Of a stretch of DNA of 64,000 nt, positions 4,130 through 63,171 are shown in pieces. The stretch lies in assembly GCA_964387885.1 (NCBI GenBank), contig CAYLYZ010000001.1:175903-239902 (forward strand), given 5' to 3'. Under the pieces are notes generated by a model. It was not told the DNA's origin and ran no database searches. It saw only the letters and a program-made list of their open reading frames with translations. Every line of letters starts with the position of its first letter. The first letter of the stretch is position 1. The position numbers and the translations under genes are program-made. This stretch comes from an uncultured bacterium. Lineage in GTDB: Bacteria > Electryoneota > AABM5-125-24 > Hatepunaeales > Hatepunaeaceae.

Positions 4130-4726
4130 TTATTTCTGCTCCTTGTATTTTCTAAATAACTTCTTCAAAACTGCTGAATAAAACCTGTGCTCTTCTTTAA
4201 GAACTCGTGCTGAGAGTTGTTCAGGTGTTTCACCTGATAAAACAGGAATTCGAGATTGATCGATAATCTCACCCTCATCATATTCCTCATTCACGTAGTG
4301 AATGGTAACACCTGTTTCAGCAGCTCCGGATTCCACTACAGCGCGGTGAACATTCATACCGTACATCCCCTTTCCTCCGAAATCAGGCAGAAGTGCAGGA
4401 TGTATATTAATGGTGCGATTATGGAAAACTCTCAGAACCCGTGGTGGAATTTTTCGAAGGTACCCCGCAAGTATAATAAAATCTGTTTCATGCTCATTCA
4501 AAACCTTCAACATATAATCTGCAAATAATTTACCATCTTGATAGCTTTTACGGTTAAAAACTGCTGTGTTGAATCCCATTTCAGCAGCTTTTTGAAGGCC
4601 GACTGCCTCTTCCTTATTGCTCGCAACCAGTACTATCCTTGCGTCGAGTCTTCCCTCGTTGATTGCCGTTGACATCGCTTCAAAGCTTGATCCCCTCCCA
4701 GAAAGAAAAATTGCAATATTTGTCAT
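4130..4726 (-). CDS. purN: Phosphoribosylglycinamide formyltransferase.
   Basis: Motifs IAIFLSGRGSS, FIILAGYLRKIPPRVL, NIHPALLP and the G-rich loop are present. Confidence 0.9.
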   Translation of the reverse strand: MTNIAIFLSGRGSSFEAMSTAINEGRLDARIVLVASNKEEAVGLQKAAEMGFNTAVFNRKSYQDGKLFADYMLKVLNEHETDFIILAGYLRKIPPRVLRVFHNRTINIHPALLPDFGGKGMYGMNVHRAVVESGAAETGVTIHYVNEEYDEGEIIDQSRIPVLSGETPEQLSARVLKEEHRFYSAVLKKLFRKYKEQK

Positions 4727-15591: not shown

Positions 15592-15686
15592 CAGGTTTCT
15601 CTTTAATTATTGTCAAATGCATTAGTTCAGAATTATAGCATTCCCAAAAGTACTGAAGGATGTTAGTCAACGCGAGAAACGAAGTG

Positions 15687-15787
15687 ACGAAGCGATCTGT
15701 TTGAATATATGCGACATAAGAGATTGCTTCACTGCGTTCGCAAAGACTATGCTTTCAATAAATGCTAAAAAACACATTTCCACTTTT
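15687..15787. repeat. Copy 1 of a ~100 nt conserved intergenic element (core AGAGATTGCTTCACTGCGTTCGCAAAGA), ~130 nt upstream of the C_GCAxxG_C_C gene start.
   Basis: It aligns at ~80 % with 49263-49380. The 28 nt core differs at a single position. Confidence 0.6.
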
Positions 15788-28807: not shown

Positions 28808-29977
28808 TTACTTTAAATCCGAGATGAGGTTTTCAGCATACTCCCTGCCCCATCTATCCGCACTAATGATCTCCTTAATGTCCTTTGCATCGGACACATT
28901 AAGAGCATCGAGAGTTTTGTTAATTATCTCTGAGATGCCTCCGAATACCAAACGATTGTCAAGGAAACCCGCAACTGCCGCCTCATCGGCTCCATTTAGC
29001 ACAGCAGTCGCCGTCCCACCCATTAAAATAGCCTTATATGCCAGATCAAGACAGGGGTATCTTTCCCGCTCAACTATGCTGAACTCAAGAGGAGGCCAAT
29101 CTGCCGGATCATCGTCCCGTAATACCATCTCCCTGTGTGAAGGGAAAAAAAGTGCATGTTCAATTGGGATGCGCATATCCGGGACTCCCAATTGAGCCTT
29201 AAATGATCCATCGATAAATTCCACCATTGAGTGCACAATTGAAAGAGGATGTATTCTCACATCAATTTTCTCAATTGGGAATTTAAATAGATGGTAGGCT
29301 TCGATTATTTCGAGACCCTTGTTCATCAAGGTTGCGGAATCAATGGTAATCTTAGGCCCCATACTCCAGGTTGGGTGATTCAATGCTTCTTGTCTGGTTG
29401 CGTTTCTAATCTTTTCAAGTGGCCATTCCCGAAAAGGTCCACCCGATGCAGTCAGTATTAAACGCTTAACCTCGGATTTCTTCTCTCCTTGTAAACACTG
29501 TAAGATTGCACTATGTTCCGAATCAACCGGAAGAATTTTGGAATTTGTCTTTTGCGCAATAGAGTTAAGCAGATCACCGGCAAGGACTAATGATTCCTTA
29601 TTTGCCAGAGCCAGGTCAATTCCTCGGTTCAACGCATGATAACTCGGCAATAATCCCGCAACTCCAACAAGTCCGTTTAAGCAAAGGTCATACTCCTCAT
29701 TTTCAGCAACCCGAGCGTTAGCATCCTCTCCGGCAAAAATCTCAATCCCTGACCCAAAAAGAGAATCCTGCAGTTCTTTGTATCGACTGTCATCACTGAT
29801 TGCAACACATCGAGGTTTCCACATAAGAGCCATATCTGCTAATGAACGCCATTGAGAACCTGCGGTCAAAAGTTCAATATCAAAATCACCCAATCTGTTT
29901 ATCACATCGAGAGTCTGCGTTCCGATTGATCCCGTTGCACCAAATATTGCTATTTTTCTTTCTGGTTTTGCTTTCAT
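28808..29977 (-). CDS. dxr: 1-deoxy-D-xylulose 5-phosphate reductoisomerase.
   Basis: The N-terminus IAIFGATGSIGTQTLDVI and the Dxr core/C-terminal domain are present, in a 389 aa protein. Confidence 0.95.
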   Translation of the reverse strand: MKAKPERKIAIFGATGSIGTQTLDVINRLGDFDIELLTAGSQWRSLADMALMWKPRCVAISDDSRYKELQDSLFGSGIEIFAGEDANARVAENEEYDLCLNGLVGVAGLLPSYHALNRGIDLALANKESLVLAGDLLNSIAQKTNSKILPVDSEHSAILQCLQGEKKSEVKRLILTASGGPFREWPLEKIRNATRQEALNHPTWSMGPKITIDSATLMNKGLEIIEAYHLFKFPIEKIDVRIHPLSIVHSMVEFIDGSFKAQLGVPDMRIPIEHALFFPSHREMVLRDDDPADWPPLEFSIVERERYPCLDLAYKAILMGGTATAVLNGADEAAVAGFLDNRLVFGGISEIINKTLDALNVSDAKDIKEIISADRWGREYAENLISDLK

Positions 29978-39034: not shown

Positions 39035-39072
39035 TGGTGTTGGTTCCGACAAATTTTGAAAACTTGGGGAGT

Positions 39073-39123
39073 GCGGATATATTTATCCGCATAGAGGTTA
39101 TTTGACGGATAAATATATCCGTC
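39073..39123. promoter_or_regulatory. Two tandem palindromes sharing the half-site CGGATA/TATCCG (GCGGATAtattTATCCGC and GACGGATAaataTATCCGTC) between ggt and cutA.
   Basis: I read them directly. Both have 7-8 bp perfect arms with 4 nt spacers and no downstream T-run, so they look more like an operator than a terminator. Confidence 0.4.
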
Positions 39124-39157
39124 CTCCCTGAAACAGATAAACTTGATGCAATAGGAT

Positions 39158-46390: not shown

Positions 46391-46410
46391 TTTCAGATAT
46401 ACTTCCCGGT

Positions 46411-48628: not shown

Positions 48629-49111
48629 TTAAACCGCCACAGCCACTGGAATTGGGTTCAATGTCAGGTAAATTATAAGAACAATTGCTACAATTGCAAC
48701 AAATGATCCTGCCACAATTGCAGTTTTAATGAGGGATTCTTTTACCTGTACTTCAAAAACCTCAACTTTAGTTATCGCTGAAAGATCTATCGCTACCCGT
48801 TCAGTCCTATTCTCCGGAGGATTGAAAGAAGAATCAACGAATACATGCGGGATCGTTTTCAAATTATGAGCCTTATAACCTGGTATCCGCCTGTGAATTA
48901 CACCCTTTAACTGATTGTTTTTAAAACTTACATCGGTAATTTGAAATTCACGATTCTGCCAATGTAATATTACTGTCTTTTTACTTACAGGTATACTTTC
49001 ATTAACTGGTAATCTTACAGTAGAATATGAAACACATCCATTAATAAAACATACCAGTAACACTACTGAGATAATCCCAATAACTTTATCATTTAACTTC
49101 ATGCTGAACAC
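48629..49111 (-). CDS. Hypothetical lipoprotein with a C-terminal TM anchor.
   Basis: It has a lipobox FINGCVS and a C-terminal hydrophobic segment TAIVAGSFVAIVAIVLIIYL. I recognise no domain. Confidence 0.4.
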   Translation of the reverse strand: MFSMKLNDKVIGIISVVLLVCFINGCVSYSTVRLPVNESIPVSKKTVILHWQNREFQITDVSFKNNQLKGVIHRRIPGYKAHNLKTIPHVFVDSSFNPPENRTERVAIDLSAITKVEVFEVQVKESLIKTAIVAGSFVAIVAIVLIIYLTLNPIPVAVAV

Positions 49112-49262
49112 CTATCCACGAGTGTTAAAGATTGATATGTGTTTTCGCGGGAACAAACTTATTCTGCGCTCATATCTGTCCAGAATAGAAATCTAAGACA
49201 GAAATGAGTCCATACTTTTTACGAAAGTAATGACCTATGTTCGTCTTTGCAATGAACAAAGA

Positions 49263-49380
49263 GACGAAGCGGTTTTTTGTATATGTAGGGAGTAAAGAGA
49301 TTGCTTCACTTCGTTCGCAAAGATGTTACTTTTTGGAAATGCTGTAACAAACAAATATCCATAATAATTTCCCACTTTCC
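49263..49380. repeat. Copy 2 of the ~100 nt conserved intergenic element (core AGAGATTGCTTCACTTCGTTCGCAAAGA), ~190 nt upstream of the hypothetical lipoprotein/sirC/cobA genes.
   Basis: It aligns at ~80 % with 15687-15787 in the same orientation relative to the downstream minus-strand gene. Confidence 0.6.
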
Positions 49381-49434
49381 AAAGGATATACATAGATGTA
49401 AAAACTAAAGGAAAACAATCGGTACTTCGGGGAT

Positions 49435-50628
49435 TCACTCAGGAGAAGTTGGTGTGTTCATTGAATTCACGCGTCTCAGAAACTGACGATACAGACTACG
49501 AGACAGAGCCTCAAGCGCTTTTGAGTCACCCTGTCTGAAACTGTTCCTGAATTGCCCAAGAACCTCGATGCGATCATCGTCGAGTCTCTTTCGAAGTTCA
49601 GATGCACCAAAATCACTCGATTTGCGACGCCACTGTTCAAATACATCAACCTGTTCTTCAATGAGGTCTAATGCATAGGGCATTTCAACTGCTCGATCCT
49701 GCTGTACATCATCCAAATATCTTTTCAGATCATCAAGATCAAGAACTGTTACCCCTGATGCCTCTGCTACTTGCGGTTCGATATCCCGTGGAACCGCCAG
49801 GTCAACCGCTACTAATTGCCTGTTGTCACGGGGAATTGTTAAATTATCTTTAAGTACTACAAAATCGTTAGCTGAGGTTGCACTAAACAAGAGATCAGAA
49901 TTTGCAATCACTTCCGAAATATTTTCAATAGAATCTGTCAGGGCACCTACAGTGCGAGCCAATTTCTCAGCTTTGTGAACTGTCCTGTTCAGGATTGTAA
50001 TATTAACACTCTCACGGTTAAGCCTGCGAACGAGCATATCCGTTGATCTATTAACACCAATCACCGCTGCACTTAATCCGGAAATTTTTATTCCAAGAAG
50101 ATCTTTTAAAATATCAACAGCCGCACCGGCCAGCCCTTGAGCACCGATACCAATTTCTGTTTCACTTCGGATTCGTTTTGATATCTGGAAGGCATTGTGG
50201 AAAAGCTTGTGTAATCCTTTTCCAGGGCCATCAACTGAACAGGCTTCACTATAGGAGGATTTCACCTGTCCTAGTATCTGATACTCACCAAGTAATACTG
50301 AATCAAGCCCTGGTGCTACTTTAAACAGGTGTCTTGCTGCACTCGTTCCCTGACGGACAAATAGGAGTTTATCGAGATTCTTTTTATTACCGGTTATCCC
50401 TCGCGACTCATAAAAGGATGTAACACCTTCTTTTGCGTCGACTTTCTCACGATCTATTCTGTAGAATTCAATTCTGTTGCATGTTGCAAGAACAACAGCT
50501 TCAGGAGCTCCTGTTATTTCCTTAAAATCACTGGTTGCTTTTGCCAGCTCGTCCTTTTGCAATTGAAAAGGCTCTCTTTCTGACAAAGTGCAAGTATTAT
50601 GATTTATTCCACAACAACTTAAGAACAC
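49435..50628 (-). CDS. hemA: Glutamyl-tRNA reductase.
   Basis: The catalytic Cys in VLATCNRIEFY and an NADPH Rossmann motif (AAVIGVNRSTDMLVRRL) are present. Confidence 0.9.
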   Translation of the reverse strand: MFLSCCGINHNTCTLSEREPFQLQKDELAKATSDFKEITGAPEAVVLATCNRIEFYRIDREKVDAKEGVTSFYESRGITGNKKNLDKLLFVRQGTSAARHLFKVAPGLDSVLLGEYQILGQVKSSYSEACSVDGPGKGLHKLFHNAFQISKRIRSETEIGIGAQGLAGAAVDILKDLLGIKISGLSAAVIGVNRSTDMLVRRLNRESVNITILNRTVHKAEKLARTVGALTDSIENISEVIANSDLLFSATSANDFVVLKDNLTIPRDNRQLVAVDLAVPRDIEPQVAEASGVTVLDLDDLKRYLDDVQQDRAVEMPYALDLIEEQVDVFEQWRRKSSDFGASELRKRLDDDRIEVLGQFRNSFRQGDSKALEALSRSLYRQFLRRVNSMNTPTSPE

Positions 50629-50634
50629 AATTCT

Positions 50635-52344
50635 CTACGCCTTCTCATTTTGGCTTTCCATACTCGTGCTTATATTTTTAGGCATAAACAAAGCACCACC
50701 AGCCAGGATTCCAACATCACTCCATCCCGCTCGTCTTAAAATCAGAGCCGCATCCCAGGACCTACTCCCCATTTCACAGATAATCACCAATGTACACTTT
50801 TTCGGGATATCGTTAATTCTCCCTCTGAGTTCTTCGATAGGGATTTCTACATATCGATGATTTCTCTTATCGATTACAACGGTCTCTATCTCTTCAGGTT
50901 TTCTGACATCGAGGATTACCGTTTCATCTGAAAGGCTGTAAAAATCATTTGGAGAAATCAATTTAACACCGGCTGAGCGACTATTGTCTTCAATAAAAGC
51001 CATTGTGTGGAATGGATCAAATGGCTGTGAAAAGGGCGGAGAGTATGCCTGCTCAAGATCAGTTAACTTATCTATAGCCCACCCGGCATGAACAATCTGA
51101 GCTGCCTTATCTGCAAGGTGAAGGACATCACCTCTGGCTATTGCCTGCACACCAAGGATCTGTCCGTTCTTGTCATCATAAATGAGCTTGATATGGGTTT
51201 TTCCAGACTCTGGAAAATACCACAAACGATCGTGGAAAGTACCCCAGCAACTCGATATATCGTAGCCGTTCTCCCGGCAAGATGCAGAGCTCAACCCAAC
51301 CGAAGTAATTGCCAAATCAAAAAACTTCACGATAGTTACACCTGCAACAGGACCAAATCTTGAGTCACCATTGCAAATATTATCACCCGCAATTCTACCC
51401 ATCCGGTTAGCAAGAGATCCAAGAGCCCAATAGCCTGGTTTACCATCAACAGCATTGGTCATTTCAGCACAGTCACCGGCTGCGTAAATCTCCGGATCCG
51501 ATGTCTGCAATCTATCATTAACTTCGATCCCTCCAGTCACTCCGAGCTTTAGTCCTGTATCGTCAGCAAGCCTTGAGTTAGGAATAACTCCCGTAACTAC
51601 AAGAACCTTGTCAACAGTTATCGTTTCGTCTTCACCATCGGTTAGGACAAGCTTCTCACCGACTTTTTTGATCTCGCGACAATTGCATCCAAGCTTCAGG
51701 TTTACTCCCTGCTCAATCAGTTCCGATTCAACCAGTCGCGAGAGTTCTGGATCAAGGATCCCGGACATTACCTGTGATCGGAGTTCAATTAGATGTACAT
51801 CCACACCCCACATTGCACGGAAAGCTTCGCATAATTCAATACCGATGAAACCACCGCCAATAATTGCGACTGAACCTATCTTTCCTTGCTCGAGCTCTTT
51901 TCTCGTTTTAATCGCATCATTCAAAGTATGGAAGTACTCAACGCCTGGTAATGTTATTCCGGGAATGCCGGGGAGCAATGGGGATGAACCTGTAGCGATA
52001 ACCAGACGGTCATATGGCAGAGTTTTGGGCGAGTTCGATTTTAAATCGACGCAGCGAACAAACCTCGCAATTCGGTCAATCGAAACAGCCTCGTGCCCTG
52101 TTAAGATTTCAACACCTTTTACATCGTGGAAATACTTCATATCCTTGATCGTACCGGCCGGGGTTGAAATGAGATCTTTAGCCTGATCGATATCTCCGGA
52201 CAAAAAATATGCCATACCGCAAGTGGAATACCCAAAGGTATCCTCTTTTACGATAACGGTTACGTTAGCATCCGGTTGTAGACGGTGGATTCGGCATGCG
52301 GCTTTTAGACCCGCAGCCGAACCACCGATAACGATAACTTCCAT
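50635..52344 (-). CDS. CoA-disulfide reductase / NADH oxidase family flavoprotein fused to a C-terminal rhodanese domain (NADH-dependent persulfide/polysulfide reductase-like).
   Basis: The FAD motif VIVIGGSAAGLKAA and the CoADR-type redox Cys YSTCGMAY are present. The C-terminal rhodanese module has the active-site loop CEMGSRS (Cys + 4 residues + Arg; the canonical rhodanese loop is CX5R/T). Confidence 0.75.
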   Translation of the reverse strand: MEVIVIGGSAAGLKAACRIHRLQPDANVTVIVKEDTFGYSTCGMAYFLSGDIDQAKDLISTPAGTIKDMKYFHDVKGVEILTGHEAVSIDRIARFVRCVDLKSNSPKTLPYDRLVIATGSSPLLPGIPGITLPGVEYFHTLNDAIKTRKELEQGKIGSVAIIGGGFIGIELCEAFRAMWGVDVHLIELRSQVMSGILDPELSRLVESELIEQGVNLKLGCNCREIKKVGEKLVLTDGEDETITVDKVLVVTGVIPNSRLADDTGLKLGVTGGIEVNDRLQTSDPEIYAAGDCAEMTNAVDGKPGYWALGSLANRMGRIAGDNICNGDSRFGPVAGVTIVKFFDLAITSVGLSSASCRENGYDISSCWGTFHDRLWYFPESGKTHIKLIYDDKNGQILGVQAIARGDVLHLADKAAQIVHAGWAIDKLTDLEQAYSPPFSQPFDPFHTMAFIEDNSRSAGVKLISPNDFYSLSDETVILDVRKPEEIETVVIDKRNHRYVEIPIEELRGRINDIPKKCTLVIICEMGSRSWDAALILRRAGWSDVGILAGGALFMPKNISTSMESQNEKA

Positions 52345-52364
52345 GATCTTATTCTACCAAAAAC

Positions 52365-53519
52365 TCAAGCAATCGATTTACGCACACCAAGCGCAATCTT
52401 ATATAGAACTGTTATAATCCCGGCACCAAGTGCATACACAGCAAGTGTAATTGCTACTTCCGGGAATGTTGGCATATATTCTGTCACTGTACCCAATGGT
52501 GATGGGATAAATCCGGTAACAACCATTCCCATTCCTTTATCGATCCAAATGGACAGGAAAAGAATAATACATGCAAATACAAGAACGTTTTCTTTCTTTC
52601 GTGTATTTGGATTAAGTAAAAGGACTAAGGATAATACAGCCAGAACAACCGAAGCCCACATCCATGGAACTAATGCTGTTTTATCTCCGAGACCAAAAAA
52701 CATATAGGTAAAATGCGACGTATGTTCAGGCATACTGCTATAATAAGCGGTGAACAACTCCATCAGGATCAGGAATATGTTCAAACACATCGCATACGTA
52801 ACGATTAACGCAAGCTGTTGCATTGCTTTCTTACCGATATCAAATGTTGATACTTTTTTCAGCACCATCGCAATAATAATCAATAATGCTGGTCCCGCAG
52901 CAAATGCAGAAGCAAGGAATCGCGGAGCTATCACAGCACTCAACCAGAACGGGCGACCCGCCAGTCCTGAATAAAGGAACGCGGTTACCGTATGAATGCT
53001 AAAAGCCCAGGGTATTGATAGAATGATGAAAGGTTTAATCCATTTCGGAGGAGCAATCCCTTTCTTCTCTGCGTTTAGACTGAAATGGCTGATGAATACG
53101 TTTAGTATCAGATACCCAAACAAAACAACTGTATCCCAGAACATCATTGATGATGGGGACGGATGCAGAAACACGTTCGTGATCCGAAACGGCATACCCA
53201 TATCTACAAAGATAAAGGACATGCACATGATACATGCACCAATTGCAACGAATTCACCGAGAACGGTCATTTTCCCGAATGCTTTATAATTGTGGAGATA
53301 ATATGGGAGCACAACCATCACTGCAGATGCAGCGACACCAACAAGAAAGGTGAATTGAGCGATATAGAATCCCCAGGTTACATCTCTACTTAATCCTGTG
53401 ATACCGAGCCCGTAGTCAAATTGTTTCAGGTAGAAAAGTACTCCGAAACCAATGACTGCTGCGAGGGCGAAAAGCCAGACCCAATACCCTTTATTCCCAC
53501 TTAATGCTTTTTCTAACAT
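52365..53519 (-). CDS. dsrP: DsrP, the NrfD/PsrC-like integral membrane quinone-interacting subunit of the DsrMKJOP complex.
   Basis: A 384 aa polytopic membrane protein of the NrfD family, sitting directly downstream of the DsrO-type ferredoxin. Confidence 0.75.
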   Translation of the reverse strand: MLEKALSGNKGYWVWLFALAAVIGFGVLFYLKQFDYGLGITGLSRDVTWGFYIAQFTFLVGVAASAVMVVLPYYLHNYKAFGKMTVLGEFVAIGACIMCMSFIFVDMGMPFRITNVFLHPSPSSMMFWDTVVLFGYLILNVFISHFSLNAEKKGIAPPKWIKPFIILSIPWAFSIHTVTAFLYSGLAGRPFWLSAVIAPRFLASAFAAGPALLIIIAMVLKKVSTFDIGKKAMQQLALIVTYAMCLNIFLILMELFTAYYSSMPEHTSHFTYMFFGLGDKTALVPWMWASVVLAVLSLVLLLNPNTRKKENVLVFACIILFLSIWIDKGMGMVVTGFIPSPLGTVTEYMPTFPEVAITLAVYALGAGIITVLYKIALGVRKSIA

Positions 53520-53526
53520 CTAAGCC

Positions 53527-54300
53527 TCACACTATGTAGTAAATTTGAGGTTCGGTTCCAAGACCTGGCCTACGACGAATTGTAAAATTATTTTCCAGAA
53601 GCTCTCTGACTTTACTGTGAGTATCATTTAAATCACCAAAAGTCAGTGCTCCCGCCTTACAGGCATCAACACACGACGGCATTTTTCCTCTCGCCAGACG
53701 TTCCTCACAGAATGTACATTTCTCAACAACTCCGCGCATCCGAGTCGGATATTCAAGGTTGATTTTCTTCTTCAGATTGTCAGCCTCACGAGGATCGCGC
53801 CAATTGAAACTACGAGCCCCATAAGGACAGGCAACAACACAATACCGACAACCAATACATCTGTGCCAATCCATCATTACTATACCATCCTCATCCCGTT
53901 TCCATGTCGACTGAGTCGGACATGCTTTTACACAGGGCGGATTATCACAGTGGTTGCATAGGACGATTGAAGGGCCATGTAGAATATGCTCGGCAAGGTG
54001 GTCATGACCTACATCATGAAATGCCCCATGAAAACTCTCTTTCCAGATCCACTTTAATTCATCCTTCGGATTACCGAAATCTGGTACATTGTGTGTTTGA
54101 TGACAGGCATCTACGCATGCTGTACAATCTTTTTCATGGTGACATTTAGGAAGATCAATTACCATTGCCCATCTTTTACCGGATTTCTTTGATCCTTCAG
54201 GAATCTTTACCTTTGCAAAAAGATCGATGGCTGGACCAGCTGTCAAACCGACCGTACCAAGTCCGGCTAATTTAAGGAAATCTCTTCTGTCTATACTCAT
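53527..54300 (-). CDS. dsrO: DsrO, a periplasmic Tat-exported 4x[4Fe-4S] ferredoxin subunit.
   Basis: It has a Tat signal RRDFLKLAGLG and four Cys clusters (CTACVDAC, CNHCDNPPCVKACP, CIGCRYCVVACPYGA, CTFCEERL...CVDAC). Confidence 0.8.
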   Translation of the reverse strand: MSIDRRDFLKLAGLGTVGLTAGPAIDLFAKVKIPEGSKKSGKRWAMVIDLPKCHHEKDCTACVDACHQTHNVPDFGNPKDELKWIWKESFHGAFHDVGHDHLAEHILHGPSIVLCNHCDNPPCVKACPTQSTWKRDEDGIVMMDWHRCIGCRYCVVACPYGARSFNWRDPREADNLKKKINLEYPTRMRGVVEKCTFCEERLARGKMPSCVDACKAGALTFGDLNDTHSKVRELLENNFTIRRRPGLGTEPQIYYIV

Positions 54301-54680
54301 TATTTAAAGTCCTCCGGTACGATATGACACGTCCAGCAATAGGGTTTAACTCCCATATAGTTATGGCATTGGTCACAGAACTTCTCCTTGCTCGGATGAC
54401 AGTCCAGGCAAGTGTTGGTTAAACTGCGATCATACTTTTTCCCATTTGGAGCCACATGATCCCTCTCACCTTTTCGAACGACTTCTTCACGCCATTCGTT
54501 CAGCAAGTCCATGTGATAAGCAGTCATATATTCTTTTTCCATAACACATGCTTCACCTTTTGGCTTTTCAAGCTTAGGTCTTTCGGAAGACGTTCCTGTA
54601 GCCAGGTTAAGCCAAATCGGGATTGTCATGAGAACGACGAATATAATCACACCGATTACAACGTTTCTCTTATCACTCAT
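54300..54680 (-). CDS. dsrJ: DsrJ, a triheme cytochrome c.
   Basis: A 126 aa protein with an N-terminal TM/signal segment and three CxxCH motifs (CLDCH, CDQCH, CWTCH). Confidence 0.8.
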   Translation of the reverse strand: MSDKRNVVIGVIIFVVLMTIPIWLNLATGTSSERPKLEKPKGEACVMEKEYMTAYHMDLLNEWREEVVRKGERDHVAPNGKKYDRSLTNTCLDCHPSKEKFCDQCHNYMGVKPYCWTCHIVPEDFK

Positions 54681-56298
54681 CCTTATTACCCTCCTCGGTT
54701 AAGAAGGGTTCGCCACGCATATCGGTACGATCCTCCTTCTCACCTTTCATAACGAGTGCATTTCCAACAAGTTCATGTACACCTGCAACCTGTACTTCCG
54801 GAACCCAGAACTCCAATAAAGGAGGTAGGGTTGCCTTATCAATAGCGCAAACACAGGAAAGGACGTTAACACCGTGTTTTTCATGAACATGTTTGACAGC
54901 ATTTGCTCGAGGCAAACCTCCACGCATCCTCATTTCGAAGTTTTCATCGGTACCAAGTCCCGAACCACTTCCACAGCAGAATGTCTGTTCGCGAATGGTG
55001 TTCTCCGGCATTTCATGGAATTTGTTTACAACATTATTTATTACATACCTGGGTTCATCAAGCAATCCCATCGCACGAGCCGGATTACAAGAATCGTGGA
55101 ATGTAACATTCCACTGATCATTTCGGCTTTTATCGAGTTTCAGCTTATTATTTTTTAACAAGTCAGCAGTGAACTCACAAATGTGAACCATTTTCGTGGA
55201 TTTAGCATTCTCAAATACAGTACCCGTTATTGGAGACTTTGGTACTTCCATGAAGTCTGCAGGACCGTTCATCGTGTCCATATACTGGTGAAGTACTCGC
55301 CACATGTGACCGCATTCAGCACCGATAATCCACTTTACACCAAGTCGTTTGGCTTCCATATAGATTTTAGAATTCAAAGTTTTCATCATCTCGTTGGAAT
55401 GGAAAAGTCCGAAATTCCCACCCTCGGATGCAAAAGCGCTGAGGGTATAATCGAGTCCGATTTCATGGAACAATGAAAGATAGCCGAGGAATCCGAAATA
55501 GTGGGGATCGCCAAAATAGTCTGCTGAGGGTACGACAAATAGAATCTCTGCACCTTTCTTATTTACGGGAGCGTCAACTTTAATACCCGTAATATCTTCC
55601 AGATCGTCAATTGCAAAATCGACACTGTCCTGAAATCCGTGTGGTTGAATACCAAGGTGGTTTCCGGTTCTGAAGCAATTAGCTGCTGGCGTCGTGATCC
55701 AGTCAATCCCAAGTCCAAGTAACTGTAATAGCTCACGAACCATCATCGTGATTTCTGCAGTGTCAATCCCATACGGACAGAAAACAGAACATCTCCGACA
55801 CTCCGTACACTGATAGAAATAATAGAACCATTCTTTGATCACATCGACGGTTAATTCACGGCCTCCAGCCATCTTACCCATTATCTTACCGGCAAGAGTA
55901 TATTCCTTCCTGTAAATCGACCGCAGCAATTCTGCTCTGAGAACAGGCATATTCTTCGGATCACCGGAACCGATGAAAAAATGGCATTTATCCGCGCAAG
56001 CACCACAGCGAACGCAGATATCCATAAATACTTTGAGTGATCTAAATCTGTCCAAACGGTCTCGCAAACCATCGAATATTATTTGCTGCCAATTAGCTGG
56101 AAGCTGCCAATCTTCTTCATTAGTCTGCCATTTACGTGGATTCGGGAGGTCAAGATATTCTTGCGACTTTTGTATTGCAGCCCAGTTGAAAGTTCCCTTC
56201 TTATATTCGGTTTTTGGGTCTTCCCAACCTTTTTTGGAAGGAGTAAATTCTATCTGAGCTACGCTTTCTGGTGTAGGTTTTTTTTCTGACATACTCAC
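54673..56298 (-). CDS. dsrK: DsrK, the HdrD-like catalytic subunit with CCG domains.
   Basis: It has two ferredoxin motifs (CVRCGACADKC, CTECRRCSVFCP) and CCG domains (FCCGSGSG), in a 541 aa protein. Confidence 0.85.
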   Translation of the reverse strand: MSMSEKKPTPESVAQIEFTPSKKGWEDPKTEYKKGTFNWAAIQKSQEYLDLPNPRKWQTNEEDWQLPANWQQIIFDGLRDRLDRFRSLKVFMDICVRCGACADKCHFFIGSGDPKNMPVLRAELLRSIYRKEYTLAGKIMGKMAGGRELTVDVIKEWFYYFYQCTECRRCSVFCPYGIDTAEITMMVRELLQLLGLGIDWITTPAANCFRTGNHLGIQPHGFQDSVDFAIDDLEDITGIKVDAPVNKKGAEILFVVPSADYFGDPHYFGFLGYLSLFHEIGLDYTLSAFASEGGNFGLFHSNEMMKTLNSKIYMEAKRLGVKWIIGAECGHMWRVLHQYMDTMNGPADFMEVPKSPITGTVFENAKSTKMVHICEFTADLLKNNKLKLDKSRNDQWNVTFHDSCNPARAMGLLDEPRYVINNVVNKFHEMPENTIREQTFCCGSGSGLGTDENFEMRMRGGLPRANAVKHVHEKHGVNVLSCVCAIDKATLPPLLEFWVPEVQVAGVHELVGNALVMKGEKEDRTDMRGEPFLTEEGNKDE

Positions 56299-57287
56299 TC
56301 CTTCTCCAGGGGCATATCCGCCGCCTTCATTACATCACGGAATTCGTCTTCCCACTCTTCGTAGGTGTGAAGTTTTACTTTCGGATTCCATGGATTGATG
56401 TGGCGTACTTCCCTGTTATTGTTAGACATATTTCGCGTTGGACTTAAGAAAATACCGCCCATATGCATCAATTTACTCAGCGGGAAATAAATCAACAGCA
56501 CGCTCACAAGGAATAAGTGGACGAAAAATATCGCGTCAATTCCCTCTGGGATAACGGGCTGGAAGCTAAATAATCCAAGTGTAAACTGTTTTACACCGAT
56601 TATATCGACCTTGCCAAAATACCTCATCCACACACCTGTAAGGGCAATCCCTATTATAAGCAGCAGTGGAAAATAATCCGCAACGAGAGAAATGTAGCGC
56701 AGCTTAGGATCAATAATTCTTCTGAAGAACAGGACAGTTAATCCGAGCAGAAGGACAGCATCGGTCATGAATAAAATTGGCAAGCCAATTTGCATGAATC
56801 CATCAAGACTTTCCAGAAGAGGAATAAAACTGGGAACTTCCTGAAGAAAAATCTTAAAATGACGTATAAAAATCACGAGAAATGACCAATGAAAGGCAAG
56901 GGATGCCGCCCATAAAATCTTATCTGGTCCGTACACGATTTTTGGTCCCTCTTTCAGTCCTGTTCTTGTATTTCTGAACAATGATCTGAAAAACAGAACC
57001 TCTAATACCATCCGCCAGAAAACACCAGCGGTGTTATGCGGACTTTCAAGGTTATTGTTGTTAATCCATGGTAACGACTTCTGCTGCCCGCAAGTAGTTG
57101 TTATCTTGAATGGTACAGGTATCTTCGCCCATTTCAGGACACGGATGCTCATCCCGATCACAAAAGTAAGAATTGCAATGTAAGGGATTATTACTCCAAA
57201 AAGATACACCAAACCACTGACCTTGGATCCGATTAACGGAATTCCGAAGAGGATTAACACTAATATTAGGGAAATGATAAATTTCAT
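56295..57287 (-). CDS. dsrM: DsrM, a NarI-like dihaem cytochrome b membrane subunit.
   Basis: It is a ~330 aa polytopic membrane protein of the NarI/HdrE type that precedes dsrK. The ORF track started it at a TTG; the ATG 6 nt downstream (MKFIISL) is more likely. Confidence 0.75.
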   Translation of the reverse strand: MKFIISLILVLILFGIPLIGSKVSGLVYLFGVIIPYIAILTFVIGMSIRVLKWAKIPVPFKITTTCGQQKSLPWINNNNLESPHNTAGVFWRMVLEVLFFRSLFRNTRTGLKEGPKIVYGPDKILWAASLAFHWSFLVIFIRHFKIFLQEVPSFIPLLESLDGFMQIGLPILFMTDAVLLLGLTVLFFRRIIDPKLRYISLVADYFPLLLIIGIALTGVWMRYFGKVDIIGVKQFTLGLFSFQPVIPEGIDAIFFVHLFLVSVLLIYFPLSKLMHMGGIFLSPTRNMSNNNREVRHINPWNPKVKLHTYEEWEDEFRDVMKAADMPLEKE

Positions 57288-57401
57288 TAGCAATTCCCTG
57301 ATAATGAGTTATTCCGGTATATCATAATTGCCCTCAATCTCCTCAATTGGAAAGAAACCAAATCTACACTTTAGGTGCGGTTTGATTCACTTATTTCCGG
57401 T

Positions 57402-57911
57402 CTACTCCTGAGGTTCAATCAATCCTGCACGAGTCAGGAGTTTAAAATATTTTCTCTTCACCTCATTGGCTCTGATTTCGAAAGTCTTCTCACGACATGC
57501 TACATAAAGGTCAAAAGCCAACAAACAAAGGTGGTCTATTCTGTTTTCAAACGCAGTTAATTCATCGAAATCGCTTTTTTTCTCGACAAATTTAAACAGG
57601 TGTGAACGAATGATATTTTTAAGTTCAAAAGTAAAACTGATAGCTTGGGAAGGAGAGAAATCCTGTACTGATCTGATGTGTATAACTTCATCAAGTTCCT
57701 TCCTGACCAGATCCACATCCGGAGAATCCAATAATGACTCAAAAATCGTTTCGAGACACCTTGAGAGTGTATGACCTACAGGATTATGGAACCGATTCTT
57801 TTTACCTGTCAAAAACTTCAAACCGCCTTCAAGATATGAACTGAAAAGTATATTCTGCCACTCTTCAATAATTCCTTCTTTCTCTGCTCTAAGTATTTCT
57901 TTGAGCTTCAT
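57402..57911 (-). CDS. dsrT: DsrT-like protein (RsbRD-N-like small protein that commonly precedes dsrMKJOP).
   Basis: A 169 aa soluble alpha-helical protein immediately upstream of dsrM. The assignment rests on position and size more than on motifs. Confidence 0.45.
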   Translation of the reverse strand: MKLKEILRAEKEGIIEEWQNILFSSYLEGGLKFLTGKKNRFHNPVGHTLSRCLETIFESLLDSPDVDLVRKELDEVIHIRSVQDFSPSQAISFTFELKNIIRSHLFKFVEKKSDFDELTAFENRIDHLCLLAFDLYVACREKTFEIRANEVKRKYFKLLTRAGLIEPQE

Positions 57912-58180
57912 ATCTGAGACGGTCTTGCGTTTTCATATCTGTTAAGCTGTATACAGATAAAAATCTCGCTTCTCTCCGGTTATTTGTAAATTGGATTAAA
58001 TGATCAATATCTCAAATCCAGAACAGAGCAAATGATCAACATAGCCATCGCGATTTACTTTTCTCAAACCTGCAGATCTGCATGAATCATCAACAAACGA
58101 ACGGTATTTAATTCCACCGAATGAATGTTTAGTACGCTTACCTGCAGGCCAGAGAATTTACCAGCTAAACAAACCGGAGA

Positions 58181-58498
58181 TCAGACACACCCGGTTGGCT
58201 TGGCAAGACCTGCAACCTTACAGGCACCCTTTGCAGGACCTGATGGGAACATGTCATATACTTCCTTGAGTGAGAATCCGGTTTCTTTACAGAGCTTGCG
58301 GATCATCGGTGCAATACCGAATTTGGCATAGTAATCACGAAGATAATTAATCATTTTCCAATGATTATCATCAAGTTCATCAACACCTTCGGTACTTGCT
58401 AATGCAAGAGCTACTCTGTCATCCCATTGTTCGGGATTTTCCATGAATCCGTCTTCATCGACATCAATTTTGACTTCATTCCACTCAAATGTCGCCAT
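58181..58498 (-). CDS. dsrC: DsrC, the sulfite reductase co-substrate / sulfur carrier.
   Basis: A 105 aa protein with a C-terminal arm ...GPAKGACKVAGLAKPTGCV carrying the two conserved Cys (CysB, and CysA penultimate). GGAGG lies upstream. Confidence 0.9.
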   Translation of the reverse strand: MATFEWNEVKIDVDEDGFMENPEQWDDRVALALASTEGVDELDDNHWKMINYLRDYYAKFGIAPMIRKLCKETGFSLKEVYDMFPSGPAKGACKVAGLAKPTGCV

Positions 58499-58547
58499 TT
58501 TAGTTTCCTCCGTAATCTATTTAGATTAAAATTTTCTGCCCAACAAG

Positions 58548-60227
58548 TTACTTCATCTCGATGTAACCACAGGGGCATGCTTCTTTACATTTATCACAAC
58601 CATTACAAAAGTCCAGTTTAAACTTGTATGGTTCACCAGGAATCAAAGGTTTAATGATAGCCTGATCCTGGCAATAACTCCAACATGTACCACAATCGAA
58701 GCAGGAACCACAGCTCATGCAGCGTTTCGCTTCTTCTATAACCGAGGCTTCCGGTAAAGTTGTGGTGATCTCTTGCCAGGGTTCTTCAAATCGTCTGTCT
58801 GGTGGCACACTCTCACACTCATTACGCAGGGCTTGCTCGTAAAAAGTAAGTATCATTCGATCCGGTGATGCCAAGGGTAATGGTTCTTTTTTCTTAAGCT
58901 CAATACCGCGGAATTGCGCGTGAATCGTTTCTGCGGCAAGTCGTCCCTGGGCGAGGGCTATAGTCACCAGACCAAGGTCCAATACGTCGCCACCACCGTA
59001 AGTTTTATCTTCTTTAGTCTTTCCCCATTCATCGACTTTTACCCAATCGCGTCCTTCATGGAGATTGTCAAGACCTTCGAAATCCGGTTCCTGTGAAATA
59101 GCCGGAATTAATGAAGTCAACTCGACAGTAAACGTATCACCCTCAATCGGCACAGGGCGTCTGCGACCTGATGAATCAGGTTCACCCAGCTCCATCTGCT
59201 GACATTCCATCCTGACAACCTTGCCATCCTCGAGCTCAAGTTTTTTTGGCGCGGCGAGGAAATGGAAGATTACGCCTTCTTCCTCAGCTCCAACGATTTC
59301 TTCTTCAATCGCGGGCATCTCATTTCTTGTGCGACGATAGAGGATTGTAACTTCCTTGGATCCAAGCCTCAAAGCAACTCTTGCAGCGTCGATGGCGGTA
59401 TCACCTCCACCGATTATAACAACCTTATCTCCGATCTCAACATGATTACCATCGGCAATTTGATTCAGAAAGCCGACTCCGCTGAAGACGTTTGGGGCAT
59501 CCTCATTTTCAAGCCAGAGCCCTTTGCCTTTGTGTGCACCGATTCCGACAAAAATCGCATCATAGTCCGATTGAACCTGTTCGTAGGGAATGTCCCTGCC
59601 AACTGCAATATTGGTTTTTAACTCAACACCGAGATCAAGAATCTTTTGGATTTCACCATCAAGAATATTATGCGGAAGACGGTATGAGGGGATTCCATAC
59701 CTGAGCATACCACCAGGTTTTGAAAAAGCCTCGAAAATTGTCACCGCATATCCCTGGCGAGCCAAATGATAAGCACAGCCAAGTCCGGCAGGTCCAGCGC
59801 CCAGAACTGCAATCTTTTCGGATTGAGTTTCATCGGTAAGTTTCTTATAAGGGAGATCCTTTTCAATTCCCCAGTCACCGATGAATCGCTCAACATTGTT
59901 GATTGCTAAAGCACCGTCTTTGCCAATTCTATTACATGCTTCTTCACATGGATGAGGGCAAACTCGTCCACATGTCGCTGGGAGAGGATTTTTCTTTGTA
60001 AGTGTTTCCCAGGCTTCCATGAATGCTTCTTCCTGGGGTCTTTCATATTTTTCTGCTTGAGCAATTGTCATCAGAACACTGCGAATCTCCGTACCTTGCG
60101 GACATGCGCTAATGCAAGGTGCTTCTTTTTCAAGCACATACGGTCGTCTTGAGCTTGTTTCACTCCCGGACGATCCACCACCACTGCGTATTACAAGTTT
60201 TTTCTTTTTCTTCTTCAGTAAGGCCAT
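58548..60227 (-). CDS. dsrL: DsrL, a GltD-like NAD(P)H:acceptor oxidoreductase with a C-terminal 2x[4Fe-4S] ferredoxin domain.
   Basis: It has N-terminal Fe-S Cys clusters (CISACPQG, CGRVCPHPCEEAC), FAD/NAD(P) Rossmann motifs (VLGAGPAGLGCAY, VIIGGGDTAIDAA) and a C-terminal ferredoxin region CMSCGSCFDCGTCWSYC...CNGCDKCKEACPCG. It lies between dsrN and dsrC. Confidence 0.75.
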   Translation of the reverse strand: MALLKKKKKKLVIRSGGGSSGSETSSRRPYVLEKEAPCISACPQGTEIRSVLMTIAQAEKYERPQEEAFMEAWETLTKKNPLPATCGRVCPHPCEEACNRIGKDGALAINNVERFIGDWGIEKDLPYKKLTDETQSEKIAVLGAGPAGLGCAYHLARQGYAVTIFEAFSKPGGMLRYGIPSYRLPHNILDGEIQKILDLGVELKTNIAVGRDIPYEQVQSDYDAIFVGIGAHKGKGLWLENEDAPNVFSGVGFLNQIADGNHVEIGDKVVIIGGGDTAIDAARVALRLGSKEVTILYRRTRNEMPAIEEEIVGAEEEGVIFHFLAAPKKLELEDGKVVRMECQQMELGEPDSSGRRRPVPIEGDTFTVELTSLIPAISQEPDFEGLDNLHEGRDWVKVDEWGKTKEDKTYGGGDVLDLGLVTIALAQGRLAAETIHAQFRGIELKKKEPLPLASPDRMILTFYEQALRNECESVPPDRRFEEPWQEITTTLPEASVIEEAKRCMSCGSCFDCGTCWSYCQDQAIIKPLIPGEPYKFKLDFCNGCDKCKEACPCGYIEMK

Positions 60228-60321
60228 TGCCTATCCTCCATAGAAAACCCTTACTTTCACGTACATGAAGTGATTAACGGTTTTCTGTTAAATGTCTGTT
60301 CTTATCGTGCCGGATGTTCTC

Positions 60322-61710
60322 TCAGCATCTTTTCTTGTTCAAATTTAATATTTTATATCTTTTAGCAGCCTTCTTCATACCGTCCGCCCATGCCTGGGCA
60401 CCTGATACGTGAAGGTGAAGATAACTTGCTAGCACATTACGATGTAATAAACCATCGCGTGCATCTCCTACTCCGACTCCTCTCTTCACCCTGAAAACTG
60501 TAGAAAGACTGGATTGCGTTTCAATTCTTGAATAATGAAACTCATGCCCGCGTAATTGCTGCCCCTTCTTAAAGAAGGGATTCTCTTCTTCAACCACAAC
60601 TTCTTGATAACCGTGACCCTGAGGTCGTTTGCTAATCTGAATCGAATGTTCAAATACTCCTGCCATCGGGTATGTATTGCCTTCCCAATGAATGGATTTC
60701 GAAAGGAACATTAGTCCCCCGCATTCGGCATAAATGGGCAATCCCTTTTCAGCAGCTTCTGCAACCGATTTTCGAATCGATTCGTTATCTGAAAGTCTTG
60801 CGGCATGTGTTTCCGGAAAACCACCGCCTATATAAAGAGCTTCTATATCTGGTAATTCAGTAATTTCAAATGGATTTACCGGAACGAGAGTGAAACCATC
60901 CCCGCTCAGTGCCTCAAGATTTTCCGGGTAATAGAAAGTGAAGGCACTACCGGTAAAATAACCTATCCTAATTGGTTTATCCCTCTGTGGGATAATTACT
61001 GACTGTTCAGACTGAACACCGGAAGGGATTTCAATGCCTGTGACATCTCCAGCTATTTCCGAGATTCTGTCTAAATCAACATTATCTTCAATCAACTTTG
61101 CAGACAATTCAATTGCTTTATCTGCAACCTGATTTTCTTCTGGTGTCACCAGACCTAAATGTCTGCCCGGTAACGGATCTTTTCTCATGCGGGGGATGAT
61201 TCCAAGTACTGGTATCCCCGCTTCATTTTCAACGGCATCACGAATAACTCTCGCTTGCCGTTCAGTAGCAATCTGGTTGAGAATGACTCCAGCAAAGTTG
61301 ACATCCCTGTCAAACATCTTGATTCCCATCAAGATCGCAGCTATTGTGCGTGTCACCTTAACAACGGGAATAACAATAACTACGGGAAATCCCAGTAATT
61401 TTGCCATTTCCGCCGATGAATGAGTTCCCTGAGCATTCTCCCCATCATGTAGGCCACGATTAGCTTCCATGATGTTTAAGCCATCCGTAATGACATACTC
61501 TGAGAATGATCTTAGAACCTGTCGTGTGCCCATCATCCATGTATCGAGATTATGCGCTTCCCTGCCGGCAGCCAGACGCAACCAGGCGGGATCTATGTAA
61601 TCAGGACCTTTCTTAAAGGGCATCACGGGAATTCCCTTGCGACGGTAGGCACCGATGAGCCCTAACGTCGCAAGAGTTTTCCCACTATCACCACCCGCTC
61701 CGGCTATCAT
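60322..61710 (-). CDS. dsrN: DsrN, a cobyrinic acid a,c-diamide synthase (CbiA/CobB) homolog, putative siroheme amidase.
   Basis: It has the N-terminal ATPase domain (MIAGAGGDSGKTLATLGL) and a C-terminal glutamine amidotransferase-like domain, in a 462 aa protein. Confidence 0.8.
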   Translation of the reverse strand: MIAGAGGDSGKTLATLGLIGAYRRKGIPVMPFKKGPDYIDPAWLRLAAGREAHNLDTWMMGTRQVLRSFSEYVITDGLNIMEANRGLHDGENAQGTHSSAEMAKLLGFPVVIVIPVVKVTRTIAAILMGIKMFDRDVNFAGVILNQIATERQARVIRDAVENEAGIPVLGIIPRMRKDPLPGRHLGLVTPEENQVADKAIELSAKLIEDNVDLDRISEIAGDVTGIEIPSGVQSEQSVIIPQRDKPIRIGYFTGSAFTFYYPENLEALSGDGFTLVPVNPFEITELPDIEALYIGGGFPETHAARLSDNESIRKSVAEAAEKGLPIYAECGGLMFLSKSIHWEGNTYPMAGVFEHSIQISKRPQGHGYQEVVVEEENPFFKKGQQLRGHEFHYSRIETQSSLSTVFRVKRGVGVGDARDGLLHRNVLASYLHLHVSGAQAWADGMKKAAKRYKILNLNKKRC

Positions 61711-61751
61711 TAACCGTGGCGGATTGATAGCAGTTTCGGGAGACTTCAGAA

Positions 61752-62000
61752 TCAGTCGTTTGCTGAAGCTTCTTTATGAGGCAGTTCAACAAAACTGCCG
61801 CCGAAATATGTGTAAACACACTGTCCGGTATCAACCAGATTCTTCACTGCATTTTTGGCAAGTTTCTTATCAACATCCGGGTAAAGCTGCCTTACAGCCT
61901 TAACCAGATCCATTGATTTCAACTTTTTCTTTACTGCAGTTGCATCCTTGACTATTTTCAACATTGCTGCTGAAAGTTCTTCCATTGTAGGATCTGCCAT
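61752..62000 (-). CDS. dsrD: DsrD, a small winged-helix protein.
   Basis: An 82 aa lysine-rich protein whose C-terminus ...GQCVYTYFGGSFVEL matches the DsrD (E)YW/Y-SSG-S signature. It is directly downstream of dsrB. Confidence 0.75.
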   Translation of the reverse strand: MADPTMEELSAAMLKIVKDATAVKKKLKSMDLVKAVRQLYPDVDKKLAKNAVKNLVDTGQCVYTYFGGSFVELPHKEASAND

Positions 62001-62018
62001 CAGAACGTCTCCTGAATA

Positions 62019-63101: not shown

Positions 63102-63171
63102 TTATAACTCCTGTATCGAATTTTTTCTTGAACTTAATTAATCGATTTAGAGAATTGAACAAAAAGTATTT

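Follow-up and report, generated by a model that had tools for sequence, protein, structure and literature searches.

What is a stretch of intergenic DNA doing twice in one bacterial genome, ahead of genes that have nothing evident in common? The question is posed by a 64,000-nucleotide (nt) piece of contig CAYLYZ010000001.1 from an uncultured bacterium of the lineage Electryoneota (henceforth the window, i.e., the whole stretch that was analyzed), in which an earlier note, made from the sequence alone, had seen an element of about 100 nt in two copies, one upstream of a gene for a C_GCAxxG_C_C redox protein and the other upstream of a lipoprotein-sirC-cobA/hemD group. That note had offered a promoter and operator shared by a redox/siroheme regulon, a small RNA gene, or a REP-type repeat. 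We conclude that both copies are very probably decayed dimers of a repetitive extragenic palindrome (REP), a small, non-coding, non-autonomous dispersed repeat, belonging to the CGTC-tagged kind and possibly to a family beyond the four described. The last of the readings offered earlier is thus the one supported by the distribution of the repeat unit in foreign genomes, the match of both copies to a profile of foreign dimers, their extragenic setting, and the differing presence of the element among relatives.

Two eroded palindromes between co-directional genes

The 28-nt core of the element, AGAGATTGCTTCACT[G/T]CGTTCGCAAAGA, has exactly two matches in the window by pattern search (15719-15746 and 49296-49323, both on the plus strand), with none expected in shuffled sequence; they differ at one base, in agreement with the single mismatch in 28 positions reported before. 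Local alignment extends the homology to 15647-15782 and 49224-49361 at about 78% identity, and its score of 88 against a shuffled-sequence control of 21 ± 2.6 (maximum 34) bears out the claim of two similar copies. The search for further copies that had been suggested, carried through the window and about 10 kb past either end with a looser pattern and an nhmmer profile of the unit, returned these two and no third.

The limits of the element were set by a three-way alignment with a copy from a relative (locus L266, discussed below) and a hidden Markov model (HMM) of the element, which place the whole palindrome, a REP dimer inside outer inverted repeats, at 15641-15765 for copy 1 (element HMM E = 1.6e-36) and at 49218-49342 for copy 2 (E = 3.3e-35). 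By this alignment the unit begins about 45 nt to the left of position 15687, where its boundary had been drawn, and the sequence to the left of that position is a degenerate reverse complement of the core. A block on the right, '..aa..aca..ccactttcc', which had been counted as a shared part of the element, falls outside it and represents at copy 2 an ancestral flank that is kept in relatives without the element.

Copy 1 lies between the stop codon of an S8 peptidase gene of the type 9 secretion system (T9SS) type (15868) and the start of the C_GCAxxG_C_C gene (15591), and copy 2 between the stop codon of hemA (49435) and the start of a 160-amino-acid (aa) open reading frame (ORF; 49111), which is followed by sirC and cobA/hemD. 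All of these flanking genes are co-directional on the minus strand, and the copies do share one orientation relative to the downstream gene, as had been described. A 67-aa ORF (49235-49438) placed across copy 2 by a mechanical ORF finder is a spurious call, and a general caution for annotation follows, as short spurious ORFs get called across such repeats.

Each copy is an imperfect palindrome of about 125 nt, in which a degenerate long left unit, a 28-nt spacer, and a short right unit are nested in outer inverted repeats that are lineage-specific and clearest in the L266 copy (TTTCTTGAAAGTAA / TTACTTTCAAGAAA). The left unit of copy 1 (15665-15698, plus strand being the tagged one) is a decayed long dimer partner, AGTC-AACGCGA-GAAACGAAGTGAC-GAAGCGAT-CT, to be compared with the canonical CGTC-ATTGCGA-GGAGCGAAGCGAC-GAAGCAAT-CC, and aligns with positions 2-34 of the foreign-dimer profile described in the next section; then come a loop, read from the sequence at 15699-15720, and the right unit (15721-15748, minus strand), i.e., the 28-nt core found by the pattern, which reads AGTC-TTTGC-GA-ACGCAGT-GAA-GCAAT-CTC on the minus strand (nhmmer unit profile E = 2.9e-10). 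In copy 2 the same profile identifies the decayed long partner CGTC-TTTGCAA-TGAACAAAGAGAC-GAAGCGGT-TT (49242-49275, plus strand), and the pattern identifies the core as the right unit (49298-49325), CATC-TTTGC-GA-ACGAAGT-GAA-GCAAT-CTC on the minus strand (nhmmer E = 7.8e-10). In both copies, the left unit's GCGA/GCGG and the right unit's TTGC lie 28 nt apart (15696-15723 in copy 1). As to the tags, copy 1 has AGTC on either arm, and copy 2 has CGTC on its left and CATC on its right arm; across the lineage copies, four of the six arms have CGTC. The tail in the window takes the form of the CTC/CTG variant or TTT. Both right units read TTTGC...GCAAT, and the left units are decayed further. The idea of a 12-nt insertion in the left arm was abandoned, the unit there being the dimer's canonical longer hetero-partner; the surplus bases fall between the left tag and the outer repeat.

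Folded as RNA, the window copies reach -27 to -33 kcal/mol (z -1.5 to -2.7), with copy 1 forming one long imperfect hairpin, as against -50.3 kcal/mol (z -6.0) for the L266 copy: the former are eroded and the latter is nearly perfect. These values bear on whether the repeat was co-opted as a cis-acting RNA hairpin that would stabilize mRNA 3' ends, be processed by RNase III/E, or mediate attenuation, either between hemA and sirC or ahead of the C_GCAxxG_C_C gene. The copies stand 86 and 74 nt past the upstream stop codons of co-directional genes, such that read-through is plausible, the element folds better than shuffled sequence, and REPs between unidirectional or convergent ORFs have been proposed as RNA elements in the survey by Di Nocera, De Gregorio and Rocco (2013; BMC Genomics 14:522; PMC3733652). 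However, the erosion of precisely the window copies, the lack of a T-run or terminator signal in them, and the absence of the element from the orthologous site in relatives speak against such a role, which we hold to be improbable.

The repeat unit in foreign genomes

The right unit has the form R-GA-TTGCTTCRCTNCGYTCGCAA-TGAC-R, or YGTC-ATTGC-GA-GCGNAGC-GAA-GCAAT-CC on the other strand, and position frequencies from 149 foreign copies yield a profile, R-G-A-TTGCTTCRCTNCGTTCGCAA-T-G-A-C-R, with sharp edges and random flanks; following GCAA it has T in 133 copies, G in 143, A in 144, C in 141, and then R (G 92, A 43), equivalent to Y-GTC-A on the other strand. The pattern TTGCTTCRCTNCGTTCGCAA is present in 11 unrelated IMG/VR contigs, and a genome scan with the unit pattern gave at least 120 matches in at least 14 phylum-level groups, with a near-unchanged core; megaplasmids and phage contigs carry it as well. 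The hosts among the matches listed include Dehalococcoidia, Anaerolineaceae, Desulfobulbaceae, Syntrophales, many Bacteroidota, Alpha-, Beta-, and Gammaproteobacteria, Rickettsiales, Legionella, Ignavibacterium, Sulfurimonas/Sulfurovum, Nitrospirota, Nitrospina, Elusimicrobia, WOR-3, Hydrogenedentes, Fibrobacter, cyanobacteria, Bacillota, and Actinomycetes, and extend to isolates (Microvirga massiliensis, Lacinutrix venerupis, and Bradyrhizobium lablabi). The 'AAAG' variant of the window, when used in a metagenome scan, similarly gave matches of which those listed are from unrelated organisms and have just the 28-nt core in common. Closed megaplasmids carry the unit, unannotated, in Novosphingobium (at least 40 places in one replicon), Methylosinus, Aulosira, and Calothrix. 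Because the flanks differ and both isolates and closed plasmids bear the unit, the foreign copies are unlikely to be assembly or vector artefacts.

An inverted partner stands upstream of 54 of 151 units (mostly at 13-40 nt) and downstream of 20, while 81 are solo. The units are mostly extragenic: 6.5% lie inside open frames of at least 900 nt, compared to 58.5% of random positions in the same loci. Across 127 distinct foreign dimers, the spacer has its mode at 27-28 nt, and the tail that follows GCAAT begins with C and has C (76) or T (25) at its second position and A (81) at its third. The left unit of a dimer is often longer, its inner hairpin being swapped (e.g., for GGAGCGAAGCGAC, GCCCGAAGGGC, or GCCCGCCTTCGGCGGGC) with compensating changes inside the frames ATTGCGA / GAAGCAAT. 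Three pairs just beyond the unit covary (CCAG/CTGG vs CTC/GAG), being Watson-Crick in 102, 101, and 88 of the 127 dimers against 69, 69, and 57 expected, although part of this covariation may stem from subfamily descent and not from independent compensation. Within the unit, the closing positions 7/13 of the inner mini-stem covary, with G-C at 120 or more IMG/VR loci, A-T at 10, A-C at six, and G-T at one; positions 8/12 switch from C-G to T-A or back, and any base can stand at the N in the middle.

A profile of 37 dimers, made solely from other genomes, recovers both window copies in the long-left/short-right orientation and almost without gaps: copy 1 at 15667-15749 (profile positions 2-83 of 83, E = 1.2e-11) and copy 2 at 49243-49325 (positions 1-82 of 83, E = 1.3e-8). 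Both window copies belong to this dimer family.

In six loci of other genomes (L015, L027, L065, L122, L145, and L161), the 28-nt unit forms tandem arrays with a period of 64-225 nt, the 'spacers' of which are repeated too. These are not clustered regularly interspaced short palindromic repeats (CRISPR) and resemble the grouped REPs of the literature.

Filled and empty sites among relatives

Among named lineages, those closest by hemA are Candidatus Electryoneaceae, Candidatus Hatepunaea, and Calditrichota (53-56% identity), and three metagenomic relatives have hemA proteins with 87%, 82%, and 59% identity. All three of the latter keep the gene order NrfD(dsrP)-oxidoreductase-hemA-sirC-cobA/hemD, and in all of them (L264-L269) hemA is followed directly by sirC, across spacers of 164, 140, and 63 nt that have neither the hairpin nor the 160-aa ORF. 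Upstream of sirC in the window and outside the element is a block, TTTGGAAA-N(~18)-GATATTTGTT (49346-49385, minus strand), which stands at the same position in L264 and L266, where there is no element; it is possibly the sirC promoter, a candidate of the FCB-group type, and copy 2 sits just downstream of it. Since this block is conserved in relatives without the element, the right flank that had been taken as shared is partly ancestral DNA.

The relative with the 82% identical hemA (L266/L267) has a well-preserved element of about 123 nt elsewhere, between the convergent stop codons of cobA/hemD and an aminotransferase gene (13541-13665 of L266), with its right end one base from the aminotransferase stop codon, its flanks unrelated to those of the window copies, and no downstream gene start at the insertion site. 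The corresponding site of the window is empty, being a 20-nt spacer between the convergent cobA/hemD and aminotransferase ends (46391-46410). Given that filled and empty sites differ between these relatives, the element is gained or lost as a discrete unit, as befits an inserted repeat rather than a conserved operator, and the 82-87% identity of the hemA proteins concerned suggests insertion or loss since their divergence. Two of the lineage copies lie between unidirectional genes, one between convergent genes, and none between divergent ones. Homologs of the C_GCAxxG_C_C protein were considered as a synteny reference for copy 1 and rejected; as the closest are about 70% identical and their gene contexts differ, the orthologous comparison is confined to the other sites.

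The same sites bear on the first reading offered earlier, namely that a shared promoter with a regulator-binding palindrome co-regulates the C_GCAxxG_C_C gene and the 160-aa ORF-sirC-cobA/hemD group as a redox/siroheme regulon. The position of both copies upstream of minus-strand genes in the same orientation, the location of all lineage copies near tetrapyrrole genes, and the string TTGCGA-N18-TTATGT/TTTACT, readable on the minus strand, are in its favor. The string is indeed there, yet no promoter was called on that strand by the sigma-70 scan. Moreover, TTGCGA is part of the universal repeat unit, met in random intergenic contexts in many phyla, while the '-10' belongs to the spacer, which varies; the element is missing from that site in relatives that keep the hemA-sirC-cobA/hemD order; a conserved promoter-like block was already present upstream of the insertion; and the L266 element, between two convergent stop codons, needs no promoter. 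In light of this generic core, the empty orthologous site, the convergent L266 site, and the division of the promoter-like string between unit and spacer, the promoter/operator reading is not supported, and we consider it highly improbable.

A small RNA gene in two paralogous copies, the second reading offered earlier, would fit the approximately 78% identity over about 125 nt and the predicted structure. Yet the element has no Rfam match at any threshold (none in the window at the gathering score and chance-level matches at a permissive E of up to 10; on 17 loci with canonical dimers, nothing at the gathering score except one tRNA), and scans for sigma-70 promoters and intrinsic terminators found nothing at either copy on the relevant strand, leaving it without a promoter and terminator pair. 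Furthermore, it is palindromic on both strands, its position is not conserved in relatives, and its conserved part is the generic repeat unit, so that a small RNA gene has next to no probability.

The flanks also raise the possibility that copy 1 was copied from the hemA-sirC locus along with about 17 nt of flank, by local duplication or gene conversion. Directly beyond the right end, 14 of 17 bases match between the copies (TAAAAAACACATTTCCA / TAACAAACAAATATCCA), this flank being ancestral at copy 2, and the fixed register of the match points to copying that took a short flank along, or else to a preferred target. However, scored as a free local alignment this resemblance does not reach significance (p 0.07), the left side shows no match (p 0.63), and the flanks of the L266 copy are unrelated, which together make a local duplication quite improbable.

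Search for a mobilizing enzyme or encoded product

All-against-all clustering of the ORFs neighboring the units revealed no recurrent protein family beside them, with the common families or phage structural families being the sole ones to recur. REPs of another kind are mobilized by RAYTs (tyrosine transposases associated with REPs). A jackhmmer search seeded with Escherichia coli RayT was run over 11,384 ORFs in 2.8 Mb of flanks from about 390 loci; it detected no RAYT flanked by the 28-nt unit. The one RAYT-like ORF in these 2.8 Mb (L128:3333-3950) is flanked by its own unrelated REPs (TTTCGGTTGGTGAAGACACCAACCGATA) and has a copy of the 28-nt unit 2.5 kb off, so that this genome hosts two REP systems side by side. 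No RAYT-like ORF is present in the window, in its 10-kb extensions, or in the loci of the relatives. An association with small GIY-YIG genes was not borne out by the neighbor analysis.

Translations of the repeat matched no family in Pfam and NCBIfam, and a protein search with the translated element for spurious ORFs on other copies gave no candidates. Literature searches with DNA strings and three-frame peptides of the repeat returned chance primer matches only, and the RepRanger paper does not contain the 28-nt unit.

Neighboring genes and other features of the window

The 160-aa ORF (48629-49111, minus strand), which lies between copy 2 and sirC, has a lipoprotein-like N-terminus and a hydrophobic C-terminus. 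It matches no Pfam family and, given its absence from the hemA-sirC spacer of the three relatives (L264-L269), may have arrived together with or beside the repeat. Directly before the ATG of sirC is the sequence TAGAAAAGTAAATG, which resembles the outer repeat of the element, GAAAGTAA. On the other side of the locus, the region directly upstream of hemA (about 50635-64000, and likewise L400/L401) encodes aprB/aprA-like and qmo/hdr-like proteins, dsrAB, a dsrN-like CbiA protein, dsrC, and dsrMKJOP. With this full dissimilatory sulfite reductase region directly upstream of hemA, the siroheme genes follow the dsr genes; the source lineage is an uncultured one of the FCB (Fibrobacteres-Chlorobi-Bacteroidetes) group that carries dsr genes.

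Two further inverted repeats were seen in the window. One consists of 25-nt arms placed 25 kb apart (4698-4722 and 29941-29965; 24 of 25 positions complementary), each within the first ~10 codons of a minus-strand gene, i.e., a purN-like gene (4130-4726, MTNIAIFLSG) and a dxr-like gene (28808-29977, MKAKPERKIAIFGATGSIG); on the coding strand the arms are mutual reverse complements around the palindrome AATATTGCAATATT, with a rough chance expectation of ~3e-4. The other is a strong local hairpin at 39067-39128, with 23-nt arms that are 91% complementary and a 16-nt loop (GGGAGTGCGGATATATTTATCCG / CGGATAAATATATCCGTCCTCCC).

How the repeat might work, and what weighs against the reading

We propose that a non-autonomous REP spreads, or once spread, into intergenic DNA, and that two of its units, inverted, with the tags outward and about 28 nt apart, can fold as one long hairpin or cruciform. 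The unit would act as a single-stranded hairpin, of DNA or RNA, and would be moved in trans by an enzyme that is not encoded adjacent to it. The window copies are probably old, decaying passengers, whose sole likely local effect would be on message stability or processing, through a long hairpin in a read-through or 5'-untranslated transcript. The messages affected would be those of the C_GCAxxG_C_C gene and the 160-aa ORF-sirC-cobA/hemD group, by way of transcripts from the S8 peptidase gene or hemA; at copy 2, a transcript could also begin at the conserved block upstream of it.

Several points weigh against this assignment. The tags of the window copies are partly decayed (two of four: AGTC and CATC), and the first stem pair is broken in both right units. 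The window and its extensions, about 84 kb of the source genome, contain but two copies. Each of the three lineage copies has tetrapyrrole genes no more than about 1.5 kb away (hemC; hemA/sirC; cobA-hemD), which could hint at something beyond random insertion, though we give this little weight because the sampling was centered on those genes. Neither the clustering of neighbors nor the RAYT search identified a mobilizing enzyme, and a target-site duplication cannot be read in the comparison of filled and empty sites, since their short spacers have diverged. Finally, the stem of the unit has 5 bp, a purine internal loop, 2 bp, and a 3-nt loop, as opposed to the uninterrupted stem of 8-9 bp with a 4-5-nt loop in the four published CGTC families (PMC3733652), and the exact unit is not found in the readable text and supplements of that paper. 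On account of this internal purine loop with its variable inner hairpin, and of the absence of the exact unit from those readable portions, we file the repeat under the CGTC kind without assigning it to one of the four published families.

The occurrence of the same 28-nt sequence, YGTC tag, purine loop, and GNA-capped covarying hairpin in at least 14 phylum-level groups, with no linked transposase, raises the further idea that the unit is the recognition hairpin of a phylum-crossing system and not an ordinary vertically inherited REP. This we advance tentatively, as a possibility on the unlikely side. If true, the hairpin would have to be served either by a trans-acting enzyme, unlinked and disseminated through horizontal transfer, or by a universal host factor that picks out exactly this hairpin; phylogenetic profiling with this sharp motif could then answer the question, posed in the published work, of what moves CGTC REPs. 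As for the window itself, the similarity of the two copies argues for neither a haem/siroheme regulon nor a shared promoter nor a small RNA, and annotation under any of these labels should be avoided. The wider family is of modest interest, as a sharp unit that is near-invariant across phyla and shows structural covariation, and whose means of spread is not established in the literature.

Comparison with known systems

Like Rho-independent terminators, the element is a GC-containing hairpin downstream of genes, but it has no T-run, no terminator call at either copy, and far longer arms. With miniature inverted-repeat transposable elements (MITEs) it shares a non-coding length of about 125 nt, terminal inverted repeats, filled and empty sites, and intergenic location; it differs from them in that a target-site duplication is unreadable, no parent insertion sequence with matching ends was seen, and its conserved part is internal (the REP units) whereas the terminal repeats are lineage-specific.

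The likeness to REPs is closer. GTAG-tagged REPs and the RAYT-mobilized doublets known as REPINs (REP doublets forming hairpins) are likewise short tagged hairpins in extragenic DNA, which form inverted doublets that fold into a long hairpin and leave singlets as remnants; enterobacterial REPs even have the apex GCGNAGC (Table 1 of PMC2817692). In contrast, the tag here is YGTC in place of their GTAG or GTGG, and the RAYT REPINs are species-specific and vertically inherited, whereas the 28-nt unit is near-identical across phyla. The apex itself recalls the d(GCGNAGC) mini-hairpin of Hirao and colleagues, the GNA triloop of which is exceptionally stable in DNA with any N (reviewed in PMC13037366). 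In its short form the inner hairpin reads GCGNAGC or, where both sides of the closing pair have changed, ACGNAGT, and its N is free, although the mini-hairpin is a physical motif and not a genetic element.

The closest counterparts are the CGTC-tagged REPs, one of the two superfamilies (GTAG- and CGTC-tagged) into which PMC3733652 divides these repeats. By its description, CGTC REPs have an unpaired CGTC tag (or TGTC/CCTC), a stem starting with A-T pairs, and a short tail, mostly CCA. They occur mostly as inverted dimers, with spacers of 20-100 bp and often complementary ends, sometimes within longer palindromes, sit between unidirectional and convergent ORFs, apparently without a dedicated transposase, and are found in Alphaproteobacteria, Bacteroidetes, Chlorobi, Spirochaetes, Thermotogae, Neisseria (dRS3), and Rickettsia (RPE-4/RPE-6). 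The present repeat departs from this description in the GA/GAA internal loop and variable inner hairpin of its unit (GCGNAGC in the short form), and in its occurrence here in an uncultured FCB-group lineage with partly decayed tags; by that paper's own remark, units with bulges may have escaped its search. The repeat agrees in the unpaired terminal tag (Y-GTC, with C in 92 and T in 43 of 149 copies), the family-consensus stem beginning with A-T and T-A (ATTGC/GCAAT), of which the right units of the window have the first pair broken, the short CC(A) tail, and the inverted dimers with tags outward, spacers in the 20-100-nt range, complementary ends, and occasional nesting. The agreement extends to the extragenic, unidirectional or convergent setting with no adjacent transposase, and to hosts including Alphaproteobacteria, Bacteroidetes, Chlorobi-like lineages, Sulfurovum, and Rickettsiales. 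The CGTC-3 dimer of R. palustris, given in the supplement as the peptide VIAGLDPAIH...DARVKPAHD, back-translates to CGTCATTGC...GCAATCCA with its tags outward, i.e., to the same frame as the outer part of the unit.

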